From: Nitrospirota bacterium | Lineage (GTDB): Bacteria; Nitrospirota; Thermodesulfovibrionia; Thermodesulfovibrionales; UBA1546 | Assembly: GCA_016208915.1 (NCBI GenBank) | Contig: JACQXE010000005.1 | Span: 2,177 to 66,176 of the forward strand | Reading direction: 5' to 3' | DNA length: 64,000 nucleotides | Shown: positions 7,535 to 21,496 of the stretch, piece by piece | Position numbering within the stretch: the first letter of the stretch is position 1 | Layout of the letters: every line of letters starts with the position of its first letter | Made by a program: the position numbers and the translations under genes | Notes under the pieces: model-generated | The model's database searches: none | What the model saw: only the letters and a program-made list of their open reading frames with translations | Told to the model about the DNA's origin: nothing

Positions 7535-8527
7535 TTAATATTTATCTAACTCTTTTACAGCATCTCTAAAACCCTTCATTCCTGCATACTTATAAAGGGT
7601 TGACATTGCTGTGCTTTCGGTAGGTATGCCTGACTCTTCAAGGGCAGAGATTGGATTAAGCCCTCCTACAATCACCATTCCAGCCCTGTCTATTGCAACA
7701 GGCATCTCAAGAAGCGGTTTGTTCGGACTGCCTATAAGCAAAATACCTCCGATACCCCTTTCCTCCATCCTCTTGGCAAGTTTTTTTGCCTCATCCATAC
7801 ACACAACAGGTATCTCTCTGAAACTTGCAAGTATCTTTCCATTCCGCTTTTTTACCGCGCCCAGCACATCAGTCATCTTGCTTCTTATGAAGATATCATG
7901 CGGATCCAGAGAGGAACCTTCATAGCTTACCAGCGATATAAACCTTAGTAGCCTGCCATCGCTTATCTCGACGACACCTCCAAATCTTGATGTAACAGGT
8001 ATGCCTGCTTTAAGAAACATCCCGTTAATGGTTACGCTGCATACAGTTCCAACGCCTATCTTGCCATGAGGAATACTAACATCGCCTATGCTCTCGCCCC
8101 CTCGTGCAATCGCAATTTTGTCACTCATCAGGTATGGCGAAGAAAATATAGGTTTCAGAATCTTTAAAACCTCATTAAGCCTTTTTTCAGGAAAACAGGA
8201 AATATTTAAAATCACCTTTCCTGCCATGGTATCGAGATTCAGGGTTGTAAGATATGAGAGGGTCTCTATCCTGCTGATAACAAACCCGACCTTCTGAGAT
8301 ATCATGGCATGTTTCAGTTCCTGCCTCCCTTTATCCATAATCCTTCTGCCCTCTTTACCAAAGACCTCTGTATAGCCATGCGCGTCAAGGATCTTAAGAT
8401 GATAACGAACTGCCCTCTCTGTAAGGTCAATTCCGTGTATCTTTAGTCGACGTGATATTTCCCTGGAACCAACAATATCAGAGTATTTATCGAGGATCTC
8501 TAGTATTGCAAGCACTGTCTTGTTCAT
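7535..8527 (-). CDS. nrpR: Nitrogen repressor NrpR (wHTH + DUF128/NRD), paralog 1
   Basis: ERAVRYHLKILD wHTH; GTVCSVTING and VGGLNP NRD motifs; divergent from glnA. Confidence 0.85.
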   Translation of the reverse strand: MNKTVLAILEILDKYSDIVGSREISRRLKIHGIDLTERAVRYHLKILDAHGYTEVFGKEGRRIMDKGRQELKHAMISQKVGFVISRIETLSYLTTLNLDTMAGKVILNISCFPEKRLNEVLKILKPIFSSPYLMSDKIAIARGGESIGDVSIPHGKIGVGTVCSVTINGMFLKAGIPVTSRFGGVVEISDGRLLRFISLVSYEGSSLDPHDIFIRSKMTDVLGAVKKRNGKILASFREIPVVCMDEAKKLAKRMEERGIGGILLIGSPNKPLLEMPVAIDRAGMVIVGGLNPISALEESGIPTESTAMSTLYKYAGMKGFRDAVKELDKY

Positions 8528-10731: not shown

Positions 10732-13506
10732 ATGGATATAAACAATATTATAAAAGATATATCAGAACACACACCTGACCCTGATAGATCCTTTAAAAAT
10801 CTTAACAGATTTTTCCAAAACTCACCTGAATTTCTTGAAAAATACATAAATGAAATAGGTAATATTGCACAATTATTTGCTTATAGCCAATTCCTTGGTG
10901 ATTTCACCATAAAAGACCCCACACCACTGGCTATTGCTATAGAAAATCTCAAAATACCCATAAACAAACAGGATATTCTCTCTGAACTTTCATCAGTAGA
11001 GCGCAATGACAGGCAGAGCGCAATGAAACATATAAGAGAAATTAAAAAACGCTGCCTTTTAAGGATAACACTAAGGGATATAACAGGGACTATGGATCTC
11101 AGCCAGTGCATGCGCGAACTAAGCATTCTTGCAGAGGCGATAATAGAGGCAGTCCTTAATGTTTCAGTCTCGCTGATGAAAGAAAAATTTGGAGATATTG
11201 AGAATAATCCCTTTTCTATCATAGCCCTTGGAAAACTTGGGGCAGGCGACCTGAACTACAGTTCTGACATAGACCTGCTCTCTGTCTATCACCATGATGA
11301 AGGACTTTCTTCAGGCCTACTTCTTCCTTCAGGCGTAAGGACCAAAAGGATAGAACCACATGAGTATTTTTGCAAGCTCACAGAAACAGTCGTAAATCTG
11401 CTGCATACACAGACAGAAGATGGCATAGGATACAGGGTTGACCTCAGATTAAGACCTAATGGACAGAAAGGCGATCTTTCGCTCTCACTAAATTCATACG
11501 TCTCGTATTATGAGTCATGGGGAAAGACTTGGGAAAGGATGACACTGATACGGGCAAGACCTGTTGCAGGAGATATGCAACTCGGTGAGATGTTTACAAG
11601 AGGGGTTGAACCATTCGTATGGAAACGGTCAATAGATTACAGCGACATAGAGGAGATAAAAGGACTAAAAAAGAAGATAGATACCATCTTTGACGTAAAT
11701 GACATAAAACGAGGCTACGGAGGGATACGAGAGATAGAATTCTTTGTACAGACGTTTCAGCTTCTCTATGGAGGCGAACTCAGAAACCTCAGAACAGGCT
11801 TTCTTTCAAATGCCCTGAATGAATTACATAAAGAGGGTTTTCTATCCGCCGGTGATATAAAGATCCTTTCAGAAAGCTATATATTCCTGCGCAGGCTTGA
11901 ACATGTACTTCAGATGAAAGATGATCTGCAGACCCACACAATCCCCTCCAATCAGCCTGAGCTGGAGTTCTGTGCAAGGAAAATGCGTTTCAAAACCGGA
12001 AAGGAATTCACATCAGAACTCAGGCTGAAAAGGCTTATGGTAAGGGATATGTACAACTCCCTTTTTGGCAGTGCAGATGCACAATCTGAGGTTACAGTAT
12101 TTTTTGAAGAAGACCTGCCTGATTCCATAATCAGAGACTACCTTTCATTCAGGGGATTCAGAAATCCTGAATTCAGCCTTAAAAACATCAGGGCGCTCAG
12201 TGAACATGCATCAGTCGGAAAAACAATGCGTGAAAGAAGCCTGCTGAAGAAGGTCATTAATTCATTTATGGATCAGATACTGAGGTCCGAGAACAAAGAC
12301 AGGGTGTTGAGCATGTTGACAACATTTATAGAAAAAATAGGCATGCATGAATCGTATCTGGACCTTCTATCAAAGAGAGGCGATACAAGGGAGATATTAG
12401 TTAATACATTTGTAAAAAGCACCTATCTTACCCGTTCAATTCTCAGTCTTGATAACCTTGAGGGTCTATTTGAATATCCTGACATCAGAATGGACTATAA
12501 ATTTGTAAGGGAAAGGCTCCTTAATATCTTGGAATATAACCCAAACCCGATGAACGCAATAAGGGAGTTCAGAATTATAGAGGAACTGAAAACCGGGCTG
12601 CTTTTTCTGAAGGGATCTTTTGATGTTTATAGCCTGTCGAATACCCTCAGCATGATCGCAGACACCATTTTAAGGTCATTGCTCAGACATCTGAATGCAG
12701 ATAAGGATATCGGAGTTGTGGCACTCGGAAAATTTGGCTCAAGGGAACTGAATATCGGTTCTGACCTCGATCTCATATTTATAAGCGCAGGCAGAGAGGA
12801 GTCAACACACCTTGCCGAGGAGTTCCTGAAGTTTATTACCGAATATACATCAAGAGGCATTGTTTACAGGATTGATATGAGATTAAGGCCCGACGGGTCA
12901 AAGGGAATACTCGTAAATGATATAGATGGATACAAAAACTATTACATGCAATCTGCCCATCGCTGGGAGATTCAGGCGCTCCTGAAGGCAAGGCCTGTCG
13001 CAGGCCATAGTAATATCATGAGGGAATTCTACAACCTTAAAAAACAGATAATAACAGAGAGGGGAAAAGAGATTACAGCATCTGACATAAAAGACATGAG
13101 GAAACGGATCCTCAGCGAACTATCCAAAGACACAATCGGTTATGACATAAAGATAGGCAGAGGCGGGAGAGGAGAAATAGAGTTTCTGATCGAGTATCTT
13201 CAACTCAAACACGCCGATAGATTCCAGGATTTGATCGTGCATAACACTATGCTTGCTACAAAACGACTTGTCCGGCACGGCATCCTTCAGGATGCCACAG
13301 GAGAGTTTCTTCAGTCTGCATACAGATTCATGAGAACCATCGAAACCTTTCTCAGGCTCAATGAGGAGGATGCACTCAAACCTGATTCTGAGCTTACAGA
13401 CATCATTTTTAAGTTTATGGGCATGGATTCAAGGGAAAGGCTGATAAAACAGATAGAGATCACAAGAAACAAGGTCCTTGATATCACACAACACTTCTAT
13501 GAATAA
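10732..13506 (+). CDS. glnE: Glutamine synthetase adenylyltransferase/adenylyl-removing enzyme
   Basis: Two NTase domains: LGKLGAGDLNYSSDIDL / LGKFGSRELNIGSDLDL; RVDLRLRP / RIDMRLRP. Confidence 0.93.
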   Translation: MDINNIIKDISEHTPDPDRSFKNLNRFFQNSPEFLEKYINEIGNIAQLFAYSQFLGDFTIKDPTPLAIAIENLKIPINKQDILSELSSVERNDRQSAMKHIREIKKRCLLRITLRDITGTMDLSQCMRELSILAEAIIEAVLNVSVSLMKEKFGDIENNPFSIIALGKLGAGDLNYSSDIDLLSVYHHDEGLSSGLLLPSGVRTKRIEPHEYFCKLTETVVNLLHTQTEDGIGYRVDLRLRPNGQKGDLSLSLNSYVSYYESWGKTWERMTLIRARPVAGDMQLGEMFTRGVEPFVWKRSIDYSDIEEIKGLKKKIDTIFDVNDIKRGYGGIREIEFFVQTFQLLYGGELRNLRTGFLSNALNELHKEGFLSAGDIKILSESYIFLRRLEHVLQMKDDLQTHTIPSNQPELEFCARKMRFKTGKEFTSELRLKRLMVRDMYNSLFGSADAQSEVTVFFEEDLPDSIIRDYLSFRGFRNPEFSLKNIRALSEHASVGKTMRERSLLKKVINSFMDQILRSENKDRVLSMLTTFIEKIGMHESYLDLLSKRGDTREILVNTFVKSTYLTRSILSLDNLEGLFEYPDIRMDYKFVRERLLNILEYNPNPMNAIREFRIIEELKTGLLFLKGSFDVYSLSNTLSMIADTILRSLLRHLNADKDIGVVALGKFGSRELNIGSDLDLIFISAGREESTHLAEEFLKFITEYTSRGIVYRIDMRLRPDGSKGILVNDIDGYKNYYMQSAHRWEIQALLKARPVAGHSNIMREFYNLKKQIITERGKEITASDIKDMRKRILSELSKDTIGYDIKIGRGGRGEIEFLIEYLQLKHADRFQDLIVHNTMLATKRLVRHGILQDATGEFLQSAYRFMRTIETFLRLNEEDALKPDSELTDIIFKFMGMDSRERLIKQIEITRNKVLDITQHFYE

Positions 13507-13639: not shown

Positions 13640-16178
<2,539 letters not shown>

Positions 16179-16219
16179 CTTTAAAATATACCAATTGTGT
16201 CTGAAAAATTACAATATTG

Positions 16220-16879
16220 TTAAAAAGATGCTTTCTTCGAATCAAACTCTTCCATCCGCTTAGCCAGTTCCTTCCAGTCTAACGCCTGAAGTATTCTTAC
16301 ATGTGCATGGATAAGACCGTTCTCTATGGCATATATCTTATCTGTCTCACCAGTAATGCCATAGAACGGAAGCATGACTGAAAATGCCTGTTTGGTGTAT
16401 TCCTCAAGAGGCGTTAAGACGTCATCCCTTCTTGTATAGTAAGGGTCTTCGCCTTCCTCACATGTCTTGCCGAAGACATTGAACTGCCTGCACGAGACAG
16501 GACGCAGCATATGGATAGAACAGGAAGAGTTTACAAGAAAAGGACAGGGCATACTTTTTTCGAAACCTGATAAATGCCCGATTATGACATTGCGAACCGG
16601 CTGTGTTATTTTTTCAATGCAAAACCAGTAAATACCAACAAGTTCCAATGGATAAACAGGTATGTCGCTGTGTGTACTACAGCAGTTAGAACAGCCTCTT
16701 CTGCAGGCTAATTTTTTATCCAGCCTGTGTTCTTCATTTCTTATTGCCAAAGCTATGCCCTTGTCAATTATGGCATATGCATCAAGCAGCATTGGAAGCC
16801 ACCTGAGTTTTGATTCATCATCAGGGAAATTCATACGCGTTGAGGCATAACTGTCTTCAGTCTTCTCAGTCTTATCCAT
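16220..16879 (-). CDS. YkgJ family cysteine-cluster protein
   Basis: CRRGCSNCC...CPFL...CSIHMLRPVSCRQF. Confidence 0.85.
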   Translation of the reverse strand: MDKTEKTEDSYASTRMNFPDDESKLRWLPMLLDAYAIIDKGIALAIRNEEHRLDKKLACRRGCSNCCSTHSDIPVYPLELVGIYWFCIEKITQPVRNVIIGHLSGFEKSMPCPFLVNSSCSIHMLRPVSCRQFNVFGKTCEEGEDPYYTRRDDVLTPLEEYTKQAFSVMLPFYGITGETDKIYAIENGLIHAHVRILQALDWKELAKRMEEFDSKKASF

Positions 16880-16929
16880 AACAGTTAATTATATTAAAAA
16901 CATTGGATGGTTGTCGAACCTTAAAAACA

Positions 16930-17021
16930 TACTAAATTGTATCGCCATACGAAAATGTAGCAAATATCATTGCGCAGTTCTCTTGAAAATCAGAGGGTTA
17001 AGGGTTGGCATGGTTTTAGCA
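16930..17021 (+). promoter_or_regulatory. sigma54 promoter 1 with tandem UAS and IHF site
   Basis: TACTAAATTGTA(16930), TACGAAAATGTA(16948), AATCAGAGGGTTA(16988), TGGCATGGTTTTAGCA(17006, GG-N10-GC). Confidence 0.8.
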
Positions 17022-17045
17022 ATTCCCAATGATAGGTGATATGTC

Positions 17046-17261
17046 ATGGACTCTTTAAAAGAACGAATTGGAGAGATCGAGAGGGAGGAGATAATCAACG
17101 CCCTCAGAGAATGTAACTGGATTATGGCCAAGGCTGCAAGGAAACTTGGCATAACAGAACGGATGATCGGCTACAAGATCAAAAAATACGGGATTAAAAA
17201 GGAGGTGGAGTCTATCGAGGCGGAATCAACTGTAGCAGTAAATAGTAAGTCTCTTAATTAA
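17046..17261 (+). CDS. Stand-alone Fis-type HTH protein homologous to the activator's DNA-binding domain
   Basis: AGGTGA RBS; 28/41 aa identical to the C-terminus of 14667..16178 by manual alignment. Confidence 0.8.
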   Translation: MDSLKERIGEIEREEIINALRECNWIMAKAARKLGITERMIGYKIKKYGIKKEVESIEAESTVAVNSKSLN

Positions 17262-17292: not shown

Positions 17293-18075
17293 ATGAAAAG
17301 GTTTTTAAGGTTCGATTTTGCGGTAACGATACTCATTGCATTTGCAACAATGGCATTTGCTGAGGAGGCAAAGGTAACAGGCAGTGCATCAATGGGTGTG
17401 TTTAACAGGTATATTTTTAGAGGCTATGAGTTAAACACAAACAGCGTAGCAATACAGCCTGCGCTGAGTGTATCATATTCAGGCTTTTCTGTTGGTTTCT
17501 GGGGCAACATAGATAGCAATGAGACTTCAACCCAGTCCTTTGTGCCTGACAGACCTGACAAAAAGAGTTTTAACGAGACCGACATCACTTTGAGCTACAC
17601 CTATCCTATCGGCAAGCTGTCGCTCACTGGCGGCTACATTTATTACGGCACAAAGTATGCTGCAGAGACAGAGGAACTGTTCGCTATATTGGCATACGAT
17701 ATGCTGCTGAAGCCAACGCTATCAGTATACCGTGATATTACCTCATTCCCTGGCACGTATGTTAACCTTGCCATTGCACATTCGATCGGAGTCGGAAAAG
17801 ACATGACACTGGACTTGGGTGCATCTGCTGGATACTTTGCAGGTGATGACGATGCGTTCAAAACTGAAACTGGTACAGGTAAAAAGTACAGGGCATTCCA
17901 TGACGGAATGGTAAAGGCAGGGCTGAGCATACCGGTTCTCAAGAACGTTACGCTCCAGCCTATTGTTCAGTACTGGTTCCCCCTTTCAGACAAGGCAGAG
18001 AGGCACGGGTATAATCCCAACGGACACCTCGACGACACCTTTGTAACAGGATTGAATATGACATATAACTTTTAA
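17293..18075 (+). CDS. Outer-membrane beta-barrel / TorF-like putative porin
   Basis: Signal peptide, NRYIFRG, amphipathic strands, C-terminal YNF; next to amtB-glnK. Confidence 0.75.
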   Translation: MKRFLRFDFAVTILIAFATMAFAEEAKVTGSASMGVFNRYIFRGYELNTNSVAIQPALSVSYSGFSVGFWGNIDSNETSTQSFVPDRPDKKSFNETDITLSYTYPIGKLSLTGGYIYYGTKYAAETEELFAILAYDMLLKPTLSVYRDITSFPGTYVNLAIAHSIGVGKDMTLDLGASAGYFAGDDDAFKTETGTGKKYRAFHDGMVKAGLSIPVLKNVTLQPIVQYWFPLSDKAERHGYNPNGHLDDTFVTGLNMTYNF

Positions 18076-18099: not shown

Positions 18100-19524
18100 A
18101 TGAAACGGCTATTGTTTATATTGCTAATATTTGGATTACTGGGTTCTGCAGGCATTTTATGTGCTGAAGAGCAGGCGCAAAACCCTCCTACTCCTGCTGT
18201 GGCTGAGCAGCCTCCCGCTGCTCAGCCAACACCTCCTGCAGAAGCACCTGCACAGGAGACTGGTGCAGTCGAGGCACCACCCGCACCAGCAACACCGCCT
18301 AAGGTGGATACAGGAGATACTGCATGGGTCTTAATCTCTGCGGCCCTTGTTATGCTTATGACACCAGGGCTTGCACTCTTTTACGGAGGTATGGTCAGAC
18401 GCAAAAATGTACTCGGCACTATCATGCAGAGCTTCATAGCCCTCGGCGTCATTACTGTTCTATGGATATTGTATGGTTATAGTCTTTCATTTGGGCCGGA
18501 TAAGTGGCATATCATCGGCGGATTGGAATGGATGGGGCTGAAGGGTGTCGGGCTTGATCCCAATCCTGATTATGCAGCAACGATTCCTCATCAGGCGTTC
18601 ATGATATTCCAGATGATGTTTGCAGTTATCACACCTGCCCTGATAACAGGCGCATTTGCAGAAAGATTCAAATTCAAAACCTATCTTATATTCCTCGTGC
18701 TCTGGGCAACATTTGTATATTTTCCGCTCGCACACTGGGTATGGGGTGTTGGGGGATGGATAAGAGAGCTTGGCGCGCTTGACTTTGCAGGAGGGTTGGT
18801 AGTTCACATAAGCTCAGGGGTCTCGGCATTAGCTGCTGCCATTGTTGTCGGCAAGAGGAAAAACCACGGCACTGAACAGATGGCTCCGCATAACCTTACA
18901 ATGACACTCCTTGGCGCAGCTCTTTTATGGTTTGGCTGGTTTGGGTTTAACGGAGGCAGCGCCGTAGCATCAGGATCATTGGCAACCTCTGCCTTTGTGG
19001 TCACACACATTGCAACTGCCGGAGCAACAATTTCATGGATGGTTGCCGAGTGGCTGCATAGAAGCAAACCAACAGTGCTTGGCGCAGCATCAGGTGCAGT
19101 TGCAGGACTTGTTGCAATAACCCCTGCATCAGGTTTTGTAGGCCCTATGCCTGCATTAATCATAGGGCTTGTAGCCGGTGTTGCCTGTTACGCAGCCGTC
19201 AGTCTAAAAGCAAAATTGGGATATGATGACTCTCTTGACACAGTAGGTATTCATGGAGTTGGCGGGACATGGGGTGCGATAGCAACAGGACTGTTCGCAT
19301 CAAAGCTCATTAACAGCGCTGGAAATGACGGCTTATTCTACGGAAATGTGTCACTCCTTTGGAACCAGCTTATCAGCATAGGCGCGGCATGGGTTTATTC
19401 CTTTATGGTTACGCTCATTCTCCTGAAAGTCCTGGATTGGACATTAGGTCTGCGGGTAAGCGAAGAAGAAGAGTCTGATGGTCTTGATCTCAGCCAGCAC
19501 GGAGAGAGTGGATATACATTATAA
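18100..19524 (+). CDS. amtB: Ammonium transporter (Pro/Ala-rich N-terminal linker)
   Basis: DFAGGLVVH, WFGWFGFNGGS, YDDSLDTVGIHG. Confidence 0.96.
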   Translation: MKRLLFILLIFGLLGSAGILCAEEQAQNPPTPAVAEQPPAAQPTPPAEAPAQETGAVEAPPAPATPPKVDTGDTAWVLISAALVMLMTPGLALFYGGMVRRKNVLGTIMQSFIALGVITVLWILYGYSLSFGPDKWHIIGGLEWMGLKGVGLDPNPDYAATIPHQAFMIFQMMFAVITPALITGAFAERFKFKTYLIFLVLWATFVYFPLAHWVWGVGGWIRELGALDFAGGLVVHISSGVSALAAAIVVGKRKNHGTEQMAPHNLTMTLLGAALLWFGWFGFNGGSAVASGSLATSAFVVTHIATAGATISWMVAEWLHRSKPTVLGAASGAVAGLVAITPASGFVGPMPALIIGLVAGVACYAAVSLKAKLGYDDSLDTVGIHGVGGTWGAIATGLFASKLINSAGNDGLFYGNVSLLWNQLISIGAAWVYSFMVTLILLKVLDWTLGLRVSEEEESDGLDLSQHGESGYTL

Positions 19525-19604: not shown

Positions 19605-19958
<354 letters not shown>

Positions 19959-20006: not shown

Positions 20007-20021
20007 TGCCCTTCAATAGGC

Positions 20022-20113
20022 TACAATTTTGTAGGAAGCTACAAAATTGTAGCCTATATTTTTTAGTTTTATCCTTATAAATCAAGGACTTGAGCAATGG
20101 TATAGTTTTTGCA
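20022..20113 (+). promoter_or_regulatory. sigma54 promoter 2 with tandem UAS and IHF site
   Basis: TACAATTTTGTA(20022), TACAAAATTGTA(20040), AATCAAGGACTTG(20080), TGGTATAGTTTTTGCA(20098). Confidence 0.8.
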
Positions 20114-20152: not shown

Positions 20153-21496
20153 ATGAAAAGATTAATAGGTTTTGTTGTCTTACTATGCGTTATCGCAATG
20201 ACCTGCACAGTGTTTGCCGAATCTACTCCAGAAACTGTTGGAGCGTCTAATGGGCAGGTAGTTAACACATCTAAGGTGGATACAGGGGATACTGCATGGG
20301 TATTAATCTCTACTGCCCTTGTTATGCTTATGACACCAGGGCTTGCGCTCTTTTACGGAGGCATGGTTAGGCGCAAAAATGTACTCGGCACTATCATGCA
20401 GAGCTTTATCACAATAGCCATTATAAGTGTCCAATGGATATTGTTCGGCTACAGCCTTTCGTTTGGGCCTGATATAAATGGAATAATCGGTGGGCTTGAC
20501 TGGATAGGGCTTAAGGGCGTCGGGCTTTCACCTAATCCTGATTATGCGGCAACTGTCCCGCACATTGCCTTTATGATATACCAGGCTATGTTTGCGGTCA
20601 TAACTCCCGCGCTGATTGCAGGGGCCTTTGCAGAAAGAATGAAATTTTCTGCCTTTCTTGTATTCACGATTCTTTGGTCCACTTTAGTTTATGATCCAGT
20701 TGCCCACTGGGTATGGGGAACAGGGGGGTGGCTCAAAAAAATGGGCACACTTGATTTTGCTGGAGGGATTGTAGTCCATATAACATCAGGAATATCCGCA
20801 TTGGCTGCCGCCTTATTTATAGGAAGAAGAAAAGGCTACATGCGCGAGCCTATGCAACCGCATAATCTTCCGATGACAGTCCTGGGCGCTGGGCTTCTAT
20901 GGTTTGGATGGTTCGGTTTTAATGCTGGGAGCACACTTTCAGCTGGTGGCTTGAGCGCAATGACATTTGTTGTCACTCACACTGCAGCCGTATCTGCAAC
21001 ATTAATCTGGGTTATAATCGAATGGTTGCATCGTGGCAAGCCGACAATGTTCGGCACTGTAACAGGCGCAATAGCTGGACTTGCCACGATAACACCTGCC
21101 TCTGGTTTTGTTGGTCCAATGCCAGCGCTTGTCATCGGTCTGTTTGCAGGAGGAGTTTGCTATACAGCTTTAAATATTAAAGGAAAATTCGGATATGATG
21201 ATTCATTGGATGCCTTTGGTGTTCATGGCGTTGGCGGAACATTAGGGACAATCGCTGTAGGGTTTTTTGCAGAAAAACTTATAAATCCGTCAGGCAGCGA
21301 CGGCCTGTTTTTTGGAAATCCCAATCAGTTGTATATACAAGGCATCTCGATAATTTCTGTCGCAGTATATTCTTTCTTAGCAACACTTATCCTGTTTAAA
21401 TTAATAGACCTAGTAATAGGGATAAGGGTTTCTGAGGAAGATGAGATCGCAGGTCTCGATATAAGCCAGCATGAAGAAAGTGGATATACATTATAG
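20153..21496 (+). CDS. amtB: Ammonium transporter, second copy
   Basis: DFAGGIVVH, YDDSLDAFGVHG; GGGAGGGG RBS before ATG 20153. Confidence 0.96.
   Translation: MKRLIGFVVLLCVIAMTCTVFAESTPETVGASNGQVVNTSKVDTGDTAWVLISTALVMLMTPGLALFYGGMVRRKNVLGTIMQSFITIAIISVQWILFGYSLSFGPDINGIIGGLDWIGLKGVGLSPNPDYAATVPHIAFMIYQAMFAVITPALIAGAFAERMKFSAFLVFTILWSTLVYDPVAHWVWGTGGWLKKMGTLDFAGGIVVHITSGISALAAALFIGRRKGYMREPMQPHNLPMTVLGAGLLWFGWFGFNAGSTLSAGGLSAMTFVVTHTAAVSATLIWVIIEWLHRGKPTMFGTVTGAIAGLATITPASGFVGPMPALVIGLFAGGVCYTALNIKGKFGYDDSLDAFGVHGVGGTLGTIAVGFFAEKLINPSGSDGLFFGNPNQLYIQGISIISVAVYSFLATLILFKLIDLVIGIRVSEEDEIAGLDISQHEESGYTL

Follow-up and report, generated by a model that had tools for sequence, protein, structure and literature searches.

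The window analysed here, a stretch of 64,000 nucleotides from the genome of a Nitrospirota bacterium, contains the gene of a NifA-class activator, two ammonium transporter genes behind sigma54-type promoters, and, directly after the first of these promoters, a gene for a protein of 71 residues, hereafter called the mini. The features of the locus are as follows, in window coordinates.

14667–16178, minus strand: GAF-AAA+-HTH enhancer-binding protein of the NifA class, the likely activator (Pfam GAF, Sigma54_activat, HTH_8)
16185–16214, minus strand: match to a sigma70-like promoter immediately upstream of the activator gene, TTGTAA-18-TATATT, 9/12, TG present (consensus match only)
16209–16222, no strand: single enhancer-like palindrome over the -35 of that match, a candidate autorepression site (matrix score 12.5)
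16888–16917, minus strand: sigma70-like promoter match of a divergent CxxCxxCC gene, TCGACA-18-TATAAT, 11/12, 12 bp from enhancer site 1
16929–16942, no strand: enhancer site 1 of promoter 1, a degenerate ACA-W4-TGT palindrome (score 9.3), at the same place in related loci (about -77 from TGGCA)
16947–16960, no strand: second enhancer site of promoter 1, with an 18-bp period (score 12.7; the pair scores 22.0, the genome's second best)
16988–17000, plus strand: IHF-like site (read from the sequence)
17006–17020, plus strand: sigma54 -24/-12 element of promoter 1, TGGCATGGTTTTAGC, the genome's top-scoring site with a matrix from 29 other loci
17034–17039, plus strand: ribosome-binding site AGGTGA (read from the sequence)
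17046–17261, plus strand: the mini, a stand-alone NifA-type DNA-binding domain of 71 aa with helix B, HTH and a disordered tail (ORF, Pfam, BLASTP, model)
17293–18075, plus strand: putative outer-membrane porin, Gcw_chp/TorF-like (PF09694 above its cut-off, TIGR02001 below)
18100–19524, plus strand: ammonium transporter amtB, copy 1 (PF00909)
19620–19958, plus strand: PII protein, glnK-like (PF00543)
20021–20052, no strand: pair of enhancer sites of promoter 2, both near-perfect palindromes, with an 18-bp period (pair score 42.3, the genome's best)
20098–20113, plus strand: weaker sigma54-like element of promoter 2 (score 6.0)
20153–21496, plus strand: ammonium transporter amtB, copy 2, ATG start (PF00909)

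The site at 16988–17000, and with it the matching pattern in other mini promoters, is one that we take to be an IHF site. Positions 7535–27582 of the window form a dense nitrogen cluster with two nrpR, two glnA-like, a glnE-like, four PII, two amtB and two glutamate-synthase-like genes, of which the glnA, glnE and glutamate-synthase labels were given by eye; no enhancer-like site scoring at least 9 was found in the nrpR/glnA promoter.

The preliminary description of this DNA saw in the small frame essentially a Fis-type HTH with its own ribosome-binding site and no trace of an AAA+ domain, and all of this holds. The only Pfam matches are HTH_8 (residues 9–48; 49.7 bits against a curated cut-off of 22) and the overlapping HTH_50, AGGTGA stands 6 nt 5' of the ATG, and Pfam detects neither AAA+ nor GAF, so that the mini is not a complete bacterial enhancer-binding protein. 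The identity of 28 of 41 residues to the C-terminal HTH of the activator, earlier aligned by hand, was reproduced over residues 10–50 together with the recognition regions quoted; BLASTP aligns the mini with residues 458–500 of the activator at 29 of 43 identical residues, and the remaining HTHs of the genome are at most 37–43% identical to it. Among the 17 HTH_8 matches of its own genome the mini is the only one within a frame of less than 180 aa, and its one domain, homologous to a segment of a larger factor of that genome, is the build expected of a microProtein. It does not belong to NifA itself, scoring 40.8 against TIGR01817 (cut-off 528.85) over model positions 490–530 only. Many copies are annotated in genomes as 'Nif-specific regulatory protein', which is a mislabel. 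Contig C9 of genome G000 (about 10900–11440, plus strand) encodes another truncated enhancer-binding protein, roughly 175 aa long, with an AAA+ lid remnant and an NtrC/Fis-type HTH and no ATPase core, 3' of a gene that is panC-like by eye.

The AlphaFold2 model of the mini has helices at residues 2–22, 27–34 and 38–48, followed by a disordered tail. Helix A and the four-helix dimer fold of Fis are absent from the model, and the mini is therefore not a Fis. Its closest fold neighbours are PDB 2m8g, which we take to be Nlh2, and 4l5e (rmsd 0.7–0.9 Å over 43–46 columns; Foldseek E 0.013 and 0.029), followed by Fis and NtrC4, every E value being above 0.001.

The matrix used to score enhancer pairs over the 2.5 Mb genome was derived from 29 other loci, and the threshold was a score of at least 14. 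Three pairs reached it, at 20021 (42.3), at 16929 (22.0) and on contig C15 (17.2, without a sigma54 site), and three shuffles of the genome gave 1, 0 and 1 matches with a best score of 18.5. Measured against the shuffles, these scores indicate that the pairs at both amtB promoters, already recognised in the preliminary description, are real, and they are the top two of the genome; the claimed position of the small frame directly after a sigma54 promoter is likewise correct, with the -24/-12 element starting at 17006. The motif given at that time, TACnAWWWTGTA, has to be corrected to a core of ACA-(A/T)4-TGT. No mini gene lies 3' of the enhancer pair of promoter 2. The genome has a sigma54 gene and three genes of the HU/IHF family. 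Single enhancer-like sites scoring at least 12 are not enriched (37 in the genome vs 50–55 in shuffles), and a wider single-site regulon in this genome was rejected.

The activator itself is a NifA by its TIGR01817 score (555.8 bits against the cut-off of 528.85). It appears to control no nif genes in its own genome, which is 98.8% complete and where no nifH, nifD or nifB was found at E 1e-10, and it appears to serve ammonium uptake only; in relatives the activator adjoins nifH, which bears the same enhancer. Of 33 activator genes, many closely related and two with shared divergent promoters, 22 have an enhancer-like site scoring at least 11 a short way upstream; the genome background is 54 such sites per 2.5 Mb. 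In the window the palindrome at 16209–16222 overlaps the sigma70-like -35 of the activator gene, which suggests that this gene may be autorepressed. Because the promoter match of the CxxCxxCC gene lies so near enhancer site 1, occupancy of the enhancer could affect the divergent CxxCxxCC gene and the activator behind it.

The layout of promoter 1 recurs in the best mini loci. An enhancer pair and a sigma54 element stand directly before the mini in 30 of the 30 best loci, with a period of 17–20 bp and a distance of about 77 bp from TGGCA (89 in one). In a wider set of 88 copies, of which 81 came from 78 loci out of 80 and 7 from six of the nine earlier loci, and whose genomes partly overlap those of the matrix training, 77 pass the promoter test. 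The downstream genes vary: the first recognised one is porin-like in 69 (three types, two of them labelled without family matches), amtB in 8, PII in 3, glnA or amidotransferase in 2, and none was recognised in 6. PII or PII-like genes occur near the mini in most loci. Of 91 mini promoters, 43 have the IHF-like pattern at -17/-16, against 0.9 on average and at most 4 in shuffles, and the promoter profile contains no other conserved element between the enhancer and -24. These data support the assignment of the mini to activator-type sigma54 operons. The adjacency to the activator is not kept: upstream neighbours differ among relatives, so that the synteny of mini and activator is incidental, a conserved adjacency is ruled out, and what is conserved is the link of the mini to its promoter.

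Several families depart from the common arrangement. Family f17 has its minis within operons, behind nirB or flanked by amtB genes, and not as first genes; the first position is therefore not required, and the mini likely acts in trans. All nine loci of family f23 (L166–L174) have, as read by eye, a pair with a period of about 30 bp ahead of the mini, and at -12, the usual place of GC, their sigma54-like promoters have a terminal TTGT. Intact mini paralogs occur in kdp potassium-pump operons beside a PII-like and a porin-like gene (L032:2521-3120 and L034:3608-4107), in L034 starting 27 bp after kdpC; no enhancer promoter was seen directly upstream of either; L032 fails the enhancer-promoter test, and L034 yielded no row in it. 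In family f5, genes of about 620–640 aa 3' of the mini (L037:972-2891, L038:820-2676, L039:1635-3506) combine a C-terminal PII domain with an N-terminal part that is ammonium-transporter-like by eye.

The mini is a real, old and selectively conserved gene. Counted from the table, 35 of 61 related genomes have a short-frame homolog (one of them frameshifted; a 36th genome has a copy with stops) and 54 of the 61 have an ortholog of the activator, kin among these genomes not being independent and some genomes being incomplete. The activator is present in 34 of the 35 mini genomes, and G006 has no activator match. A protein search returned 1344 short homologs of 39–125 aa, and the recognition helix reads E-R-M-I-G in 117 of 120 mini homologs among the matches listed; the named relatives belong to Thermodesulfovibrionales/Nitrospirota. 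The only matches in the ESM Atlas are HTH_8 clusters without names, of which the top three are most frequent in Nitrospirota, and three of ten divergent clusters looked up were named, each of Nitrospirota type. In a phylum survey of 251 genomes, short copies were also found in 14 genomes belonging to two families outside the mini's own class, one of these copies being a truncated fusion; several large families of this survey gave no short copy.

For the 47-codon core of 28 of the 30 loci (one frameshifted copy and one with I at position 40 were dropped), the median dN/dS is 0.12 with no value of 1 or above in the 70 unsaturated pairs of 378; the matching region of the activator gives 0.17 in 90 of 496 pairs. 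The earlier proposal of a conservation and dN/dS check is thereby answered in favour of a conserved gene under purifying selection, which rules out a neutral duplicate remnant. One branch of a 33-row tree divides the minis from the activators (93/82, not starred; 47 columns, bootstrap not settled), a split repeated at SH-aLRT 86 in a quick tree of 86 rows, and a tree forcing the mini of the window together with its own activator is rejected (p-AU 0.014, 33 rows). These values, the third-codon identity of only 26% between the two genes and the 37–43% identity of the other HTHs rule out a recent local duplication or gene conversion. There is also no sign of a hidden DNA element within the mini frame, synonymous codons differing at nearly all positions among 110 non-redundant copies.

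The enhancer is also found where there is no mini: the same pair stands ahead of nifH, nifB, amtB and PII genes without it. The mini has been cleanly deleted with the rest of the promoter kept in seven loci (L052, L064, L068, L073, L074, L195 and L196) and is broken with the enhancer kept in three (L042, L044 and L069). Two genomes that are 99–100% complete, G029 and G041, have no HTH_8 in any frame shorter than 307 aa and retain the enhancer, the promoter, the porin-amtB-PII genes and the adjacent activator. The system thus works without the mini, which is likely dispensable, and the enhancer sites most likely serve the activator. The nif promoters (L049, L050, L053, L062, L070) have a 20-bp period, giving TGT-N10-ACA between the palindromes, and lie about one helical turn further from -24 than the amt promoters. 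In L044:3628-4000 (G015) a mini promoter with a frameshifted mini is joined to an enhancer of the nifH type, which has a period of 20 bp and lies 88 bp from TGGCA; this arrangement looks like a deletion of the nif cluster between the two promoters.

Mini and activator domains differ at the start of the HTH and in the recognition helix, at three positions: position 38 is E in 28 of 28 minis vs P in 24 of 32 activators, position 40 is M in 28 of 28 vs Q in 32 of 32, and position 27 is M in 25 of 28 vs Q in 31 of 32. The P-R-Q of the activators has thus become a fixed E-R-M, and all minis examined have M or I instead of the conserved Gln (position 40) of the NifA pattern x-R-Q. A larger residue table, in which the minis were picked by residues 27, 38 and 40, is circular at those positions; in the unfiltered alignment printout no short copy with P38 or Q40 occurs. 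R39, Y43 and K47 are invariant and position 44 is K or R in minis and activators alike, and conservation within the mini is highest in the recognition helix (0.86 vs 0.54 for helix B, a difference partly favoured by the selection pattern).

Both substitutions have counterparts in full-length activators. E38 occurs in those of G029 and G041, where the adjacent operon has the same enhancer, and M40 in all four family f19 activators read, with a strong site (15.5) in one of three f19 promoters checked; the two occur together in no full-length activator seen. Since each is found singly in full-length activators, binding of the mini to the activator's sites is plausible. According to bioRxiv 10.1101/2023.05.30.542961, NifA-type domains lack helix A and are monomeric with a Kd of 20 µM, as described there for the helix-A-less NifA domain of G. 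diazotrophicus. With no helix A and such weak binding of an isolated domain, competition would need very high levels or an improved affinity, and this expected weak affinity is the main difficulty for a competitor; the fixed substitutions may solve it, or may redirect the mini.

The anatomy of the mini, its conservation, selection, old origin, promoter layout and dispensability are established, and the binding and regulatory steps that follow are what we infer. The best explanation, to which we give a probability of about 0.5, is that the mini is a feedback competitor at the activator's ACA-W4-TGT enhancer sites and damps expression; the brake on ammonium uptake proposed in the preliminary description is to this extent partly supported. 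Under nitrogen shortage the NifA-class protein would become active, read these sites and induce the sigma54 operon with the mini, which is probably produced at no other time and as the first gene would accumulate to a high level. Having no ATPase, the mini would occupy the enhancer sites either as a homodimer or paired on DNA with the activator's HTH, and as an outcome promoter 1 would be under negative feedback, while promoter 2 and, where present, nif promoters would be braked; the activator's own promoter would perhaps be damped too.

An unlikely though substantial alternative is that the mini is a nitrogen-induced regulator of shifted specificity, whose E-R-M reads a different or extended site and represses other promoters, possibly the sigma70-type promoter of the activator. 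The family-wide fixation of the recognition-helix changes, the intact minis in kdp operons outside the enhancer context and the enhancer-like site over the -35 match of the activator gene would fit such a regulator, but single enhancer-like sites are not enriched (37 vs 50–55 in shuffles) and the IHF-like site is the sole conserved element between enhancer and -24.

We find it rather improbable that the mini acts by protein contact as a dominant-negative microProtein, pairing with the activator's HTH through helix B or docking on GAF, AAA+, sigma54 or PII, with inactivation as the effect. The replacement of two conserved Gln by Met and the gain of an acid at the predicted DNA face point in this direction, as do the stronger conservation of C23, W25 and M27 in minis, the retained hydrophobic positions of helix B and the PII or PII-like genes nearby in most loci. 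The basic, aromatic recognition helix is nevertheless near-invariant, the core net charge is similar (+4.5 vs +4.8), and E38 and M40 are each found in full-length activators.

Doubtful to a still greater degree is a Fis-like architectural or co-activating factor that would bend DNA or stabilise the activator at the enhancer, giving positive feedback. The preliminary description had allowed for it, and the fold shared with Fis and the NtrC4 domain and the tie to activator-type operons are in its favour. Its role is weakened by the genomes that lack the mini and keep the same promoter: with seven clean deletions in otherwise intact promoters and three broken remnants, the mini is dispensable, which argues against an essential co-activator. 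Moreover, the stretch from enhancer to promoter already has a conserved IHF-like site, the genome holds three HU/IHF genes, and Fis has a helix A that the mini model lacks. Finally, the high identity to the neighbouring activator and the repeated losses and pseudogenes might speak for a functionless leftover of a partial, recent duplication of the activator, but the conservation data refute it (dN/dS 0.12 with every one of the 70 usable pairs below 1, third-codon identity 26%, p-AU 0.014, 1344 short homologs, copies in other classes).

Among known systems, the best sequence and fold matches of the mini, namely the C-terminal domain of NifA (TIGR01817; PDB 9qq6), the Aquifex domain 2m8g and 4l5e (NtrC1), likewise consist of helix B and HTH without helix A. 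They are parts of full-length activators or laboratory fragments and read P/L-R-Q, whereas the mini is a natural stand-alone gene reading E-R-M. Fis resembles the mini as a small stand-alone protein of the same HTH_8 fold; it is a global nucleoid protein with about 24% identity, while the mini has neither helix A nor an N-terminal arm and is confined to nitrogen-acquisition operons. RsaL of the Las circuit, TrlR acting against TraR, the eukaryotic Id proteins and LITTLE ZIPPER are feedback HTH repressors or truncated dominant-negative factors that limit an activator, and they resemble the role proposed for the mini, a small activator-induced protein limiting its activator. RsaL is not derived from the DNA-binding domain of its activator, and TrlR and Id are without the DNA-binding part, which is all that the mini has; none of the four, to our knowledge, acts on a sigma54 enhancer. 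NifL, PspA and FleN, the sigma54 anti-activators known to us, bind the activator and are unrelated to it.

NifL shares with the proposed role of the mini the negative control of a NifA-class activator; it is a large, unrelated protein, whereas the mini copies the HTH of the activator itself. In the accessible part of PMC9866876, NifA's AAA domain is implicated in the action of NifL, and the HTH is without data. GnfM of Geobacter sulfurreducens is a sigma54 activator of nitrogen genes with two adjacent upstream sites that also represses one promoter; it belongs to a two-component cascade, and the part of that source available to us states that there is no NifA homologue and mentions no stand-alone HTH (PMC2995071). 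In the literature searched, largely that outside subscription journals, no published description of an HTH-only NifA-domain family was found.

Taken together, we put at about even odds that several Nitrospirota classes possess an ancient microProtein, a freed and re-tuned NifA DNA-binding domain that acts as a feedback brake. If this is true, occupying the enhancer would be a further mode of sigma54 anti-activation, different from those of NifL, PspA and FleN, and the mini would be what switches off ammonium uptake and nitrogen fixation in subsurface Nitrospirota, which are widespread. At 7–8 kDa the mini could be useful in engineered nif circuits. Fis is thought to derive from the C-terminus of NtrC, and the mini is a living parallel to this supposed origin.
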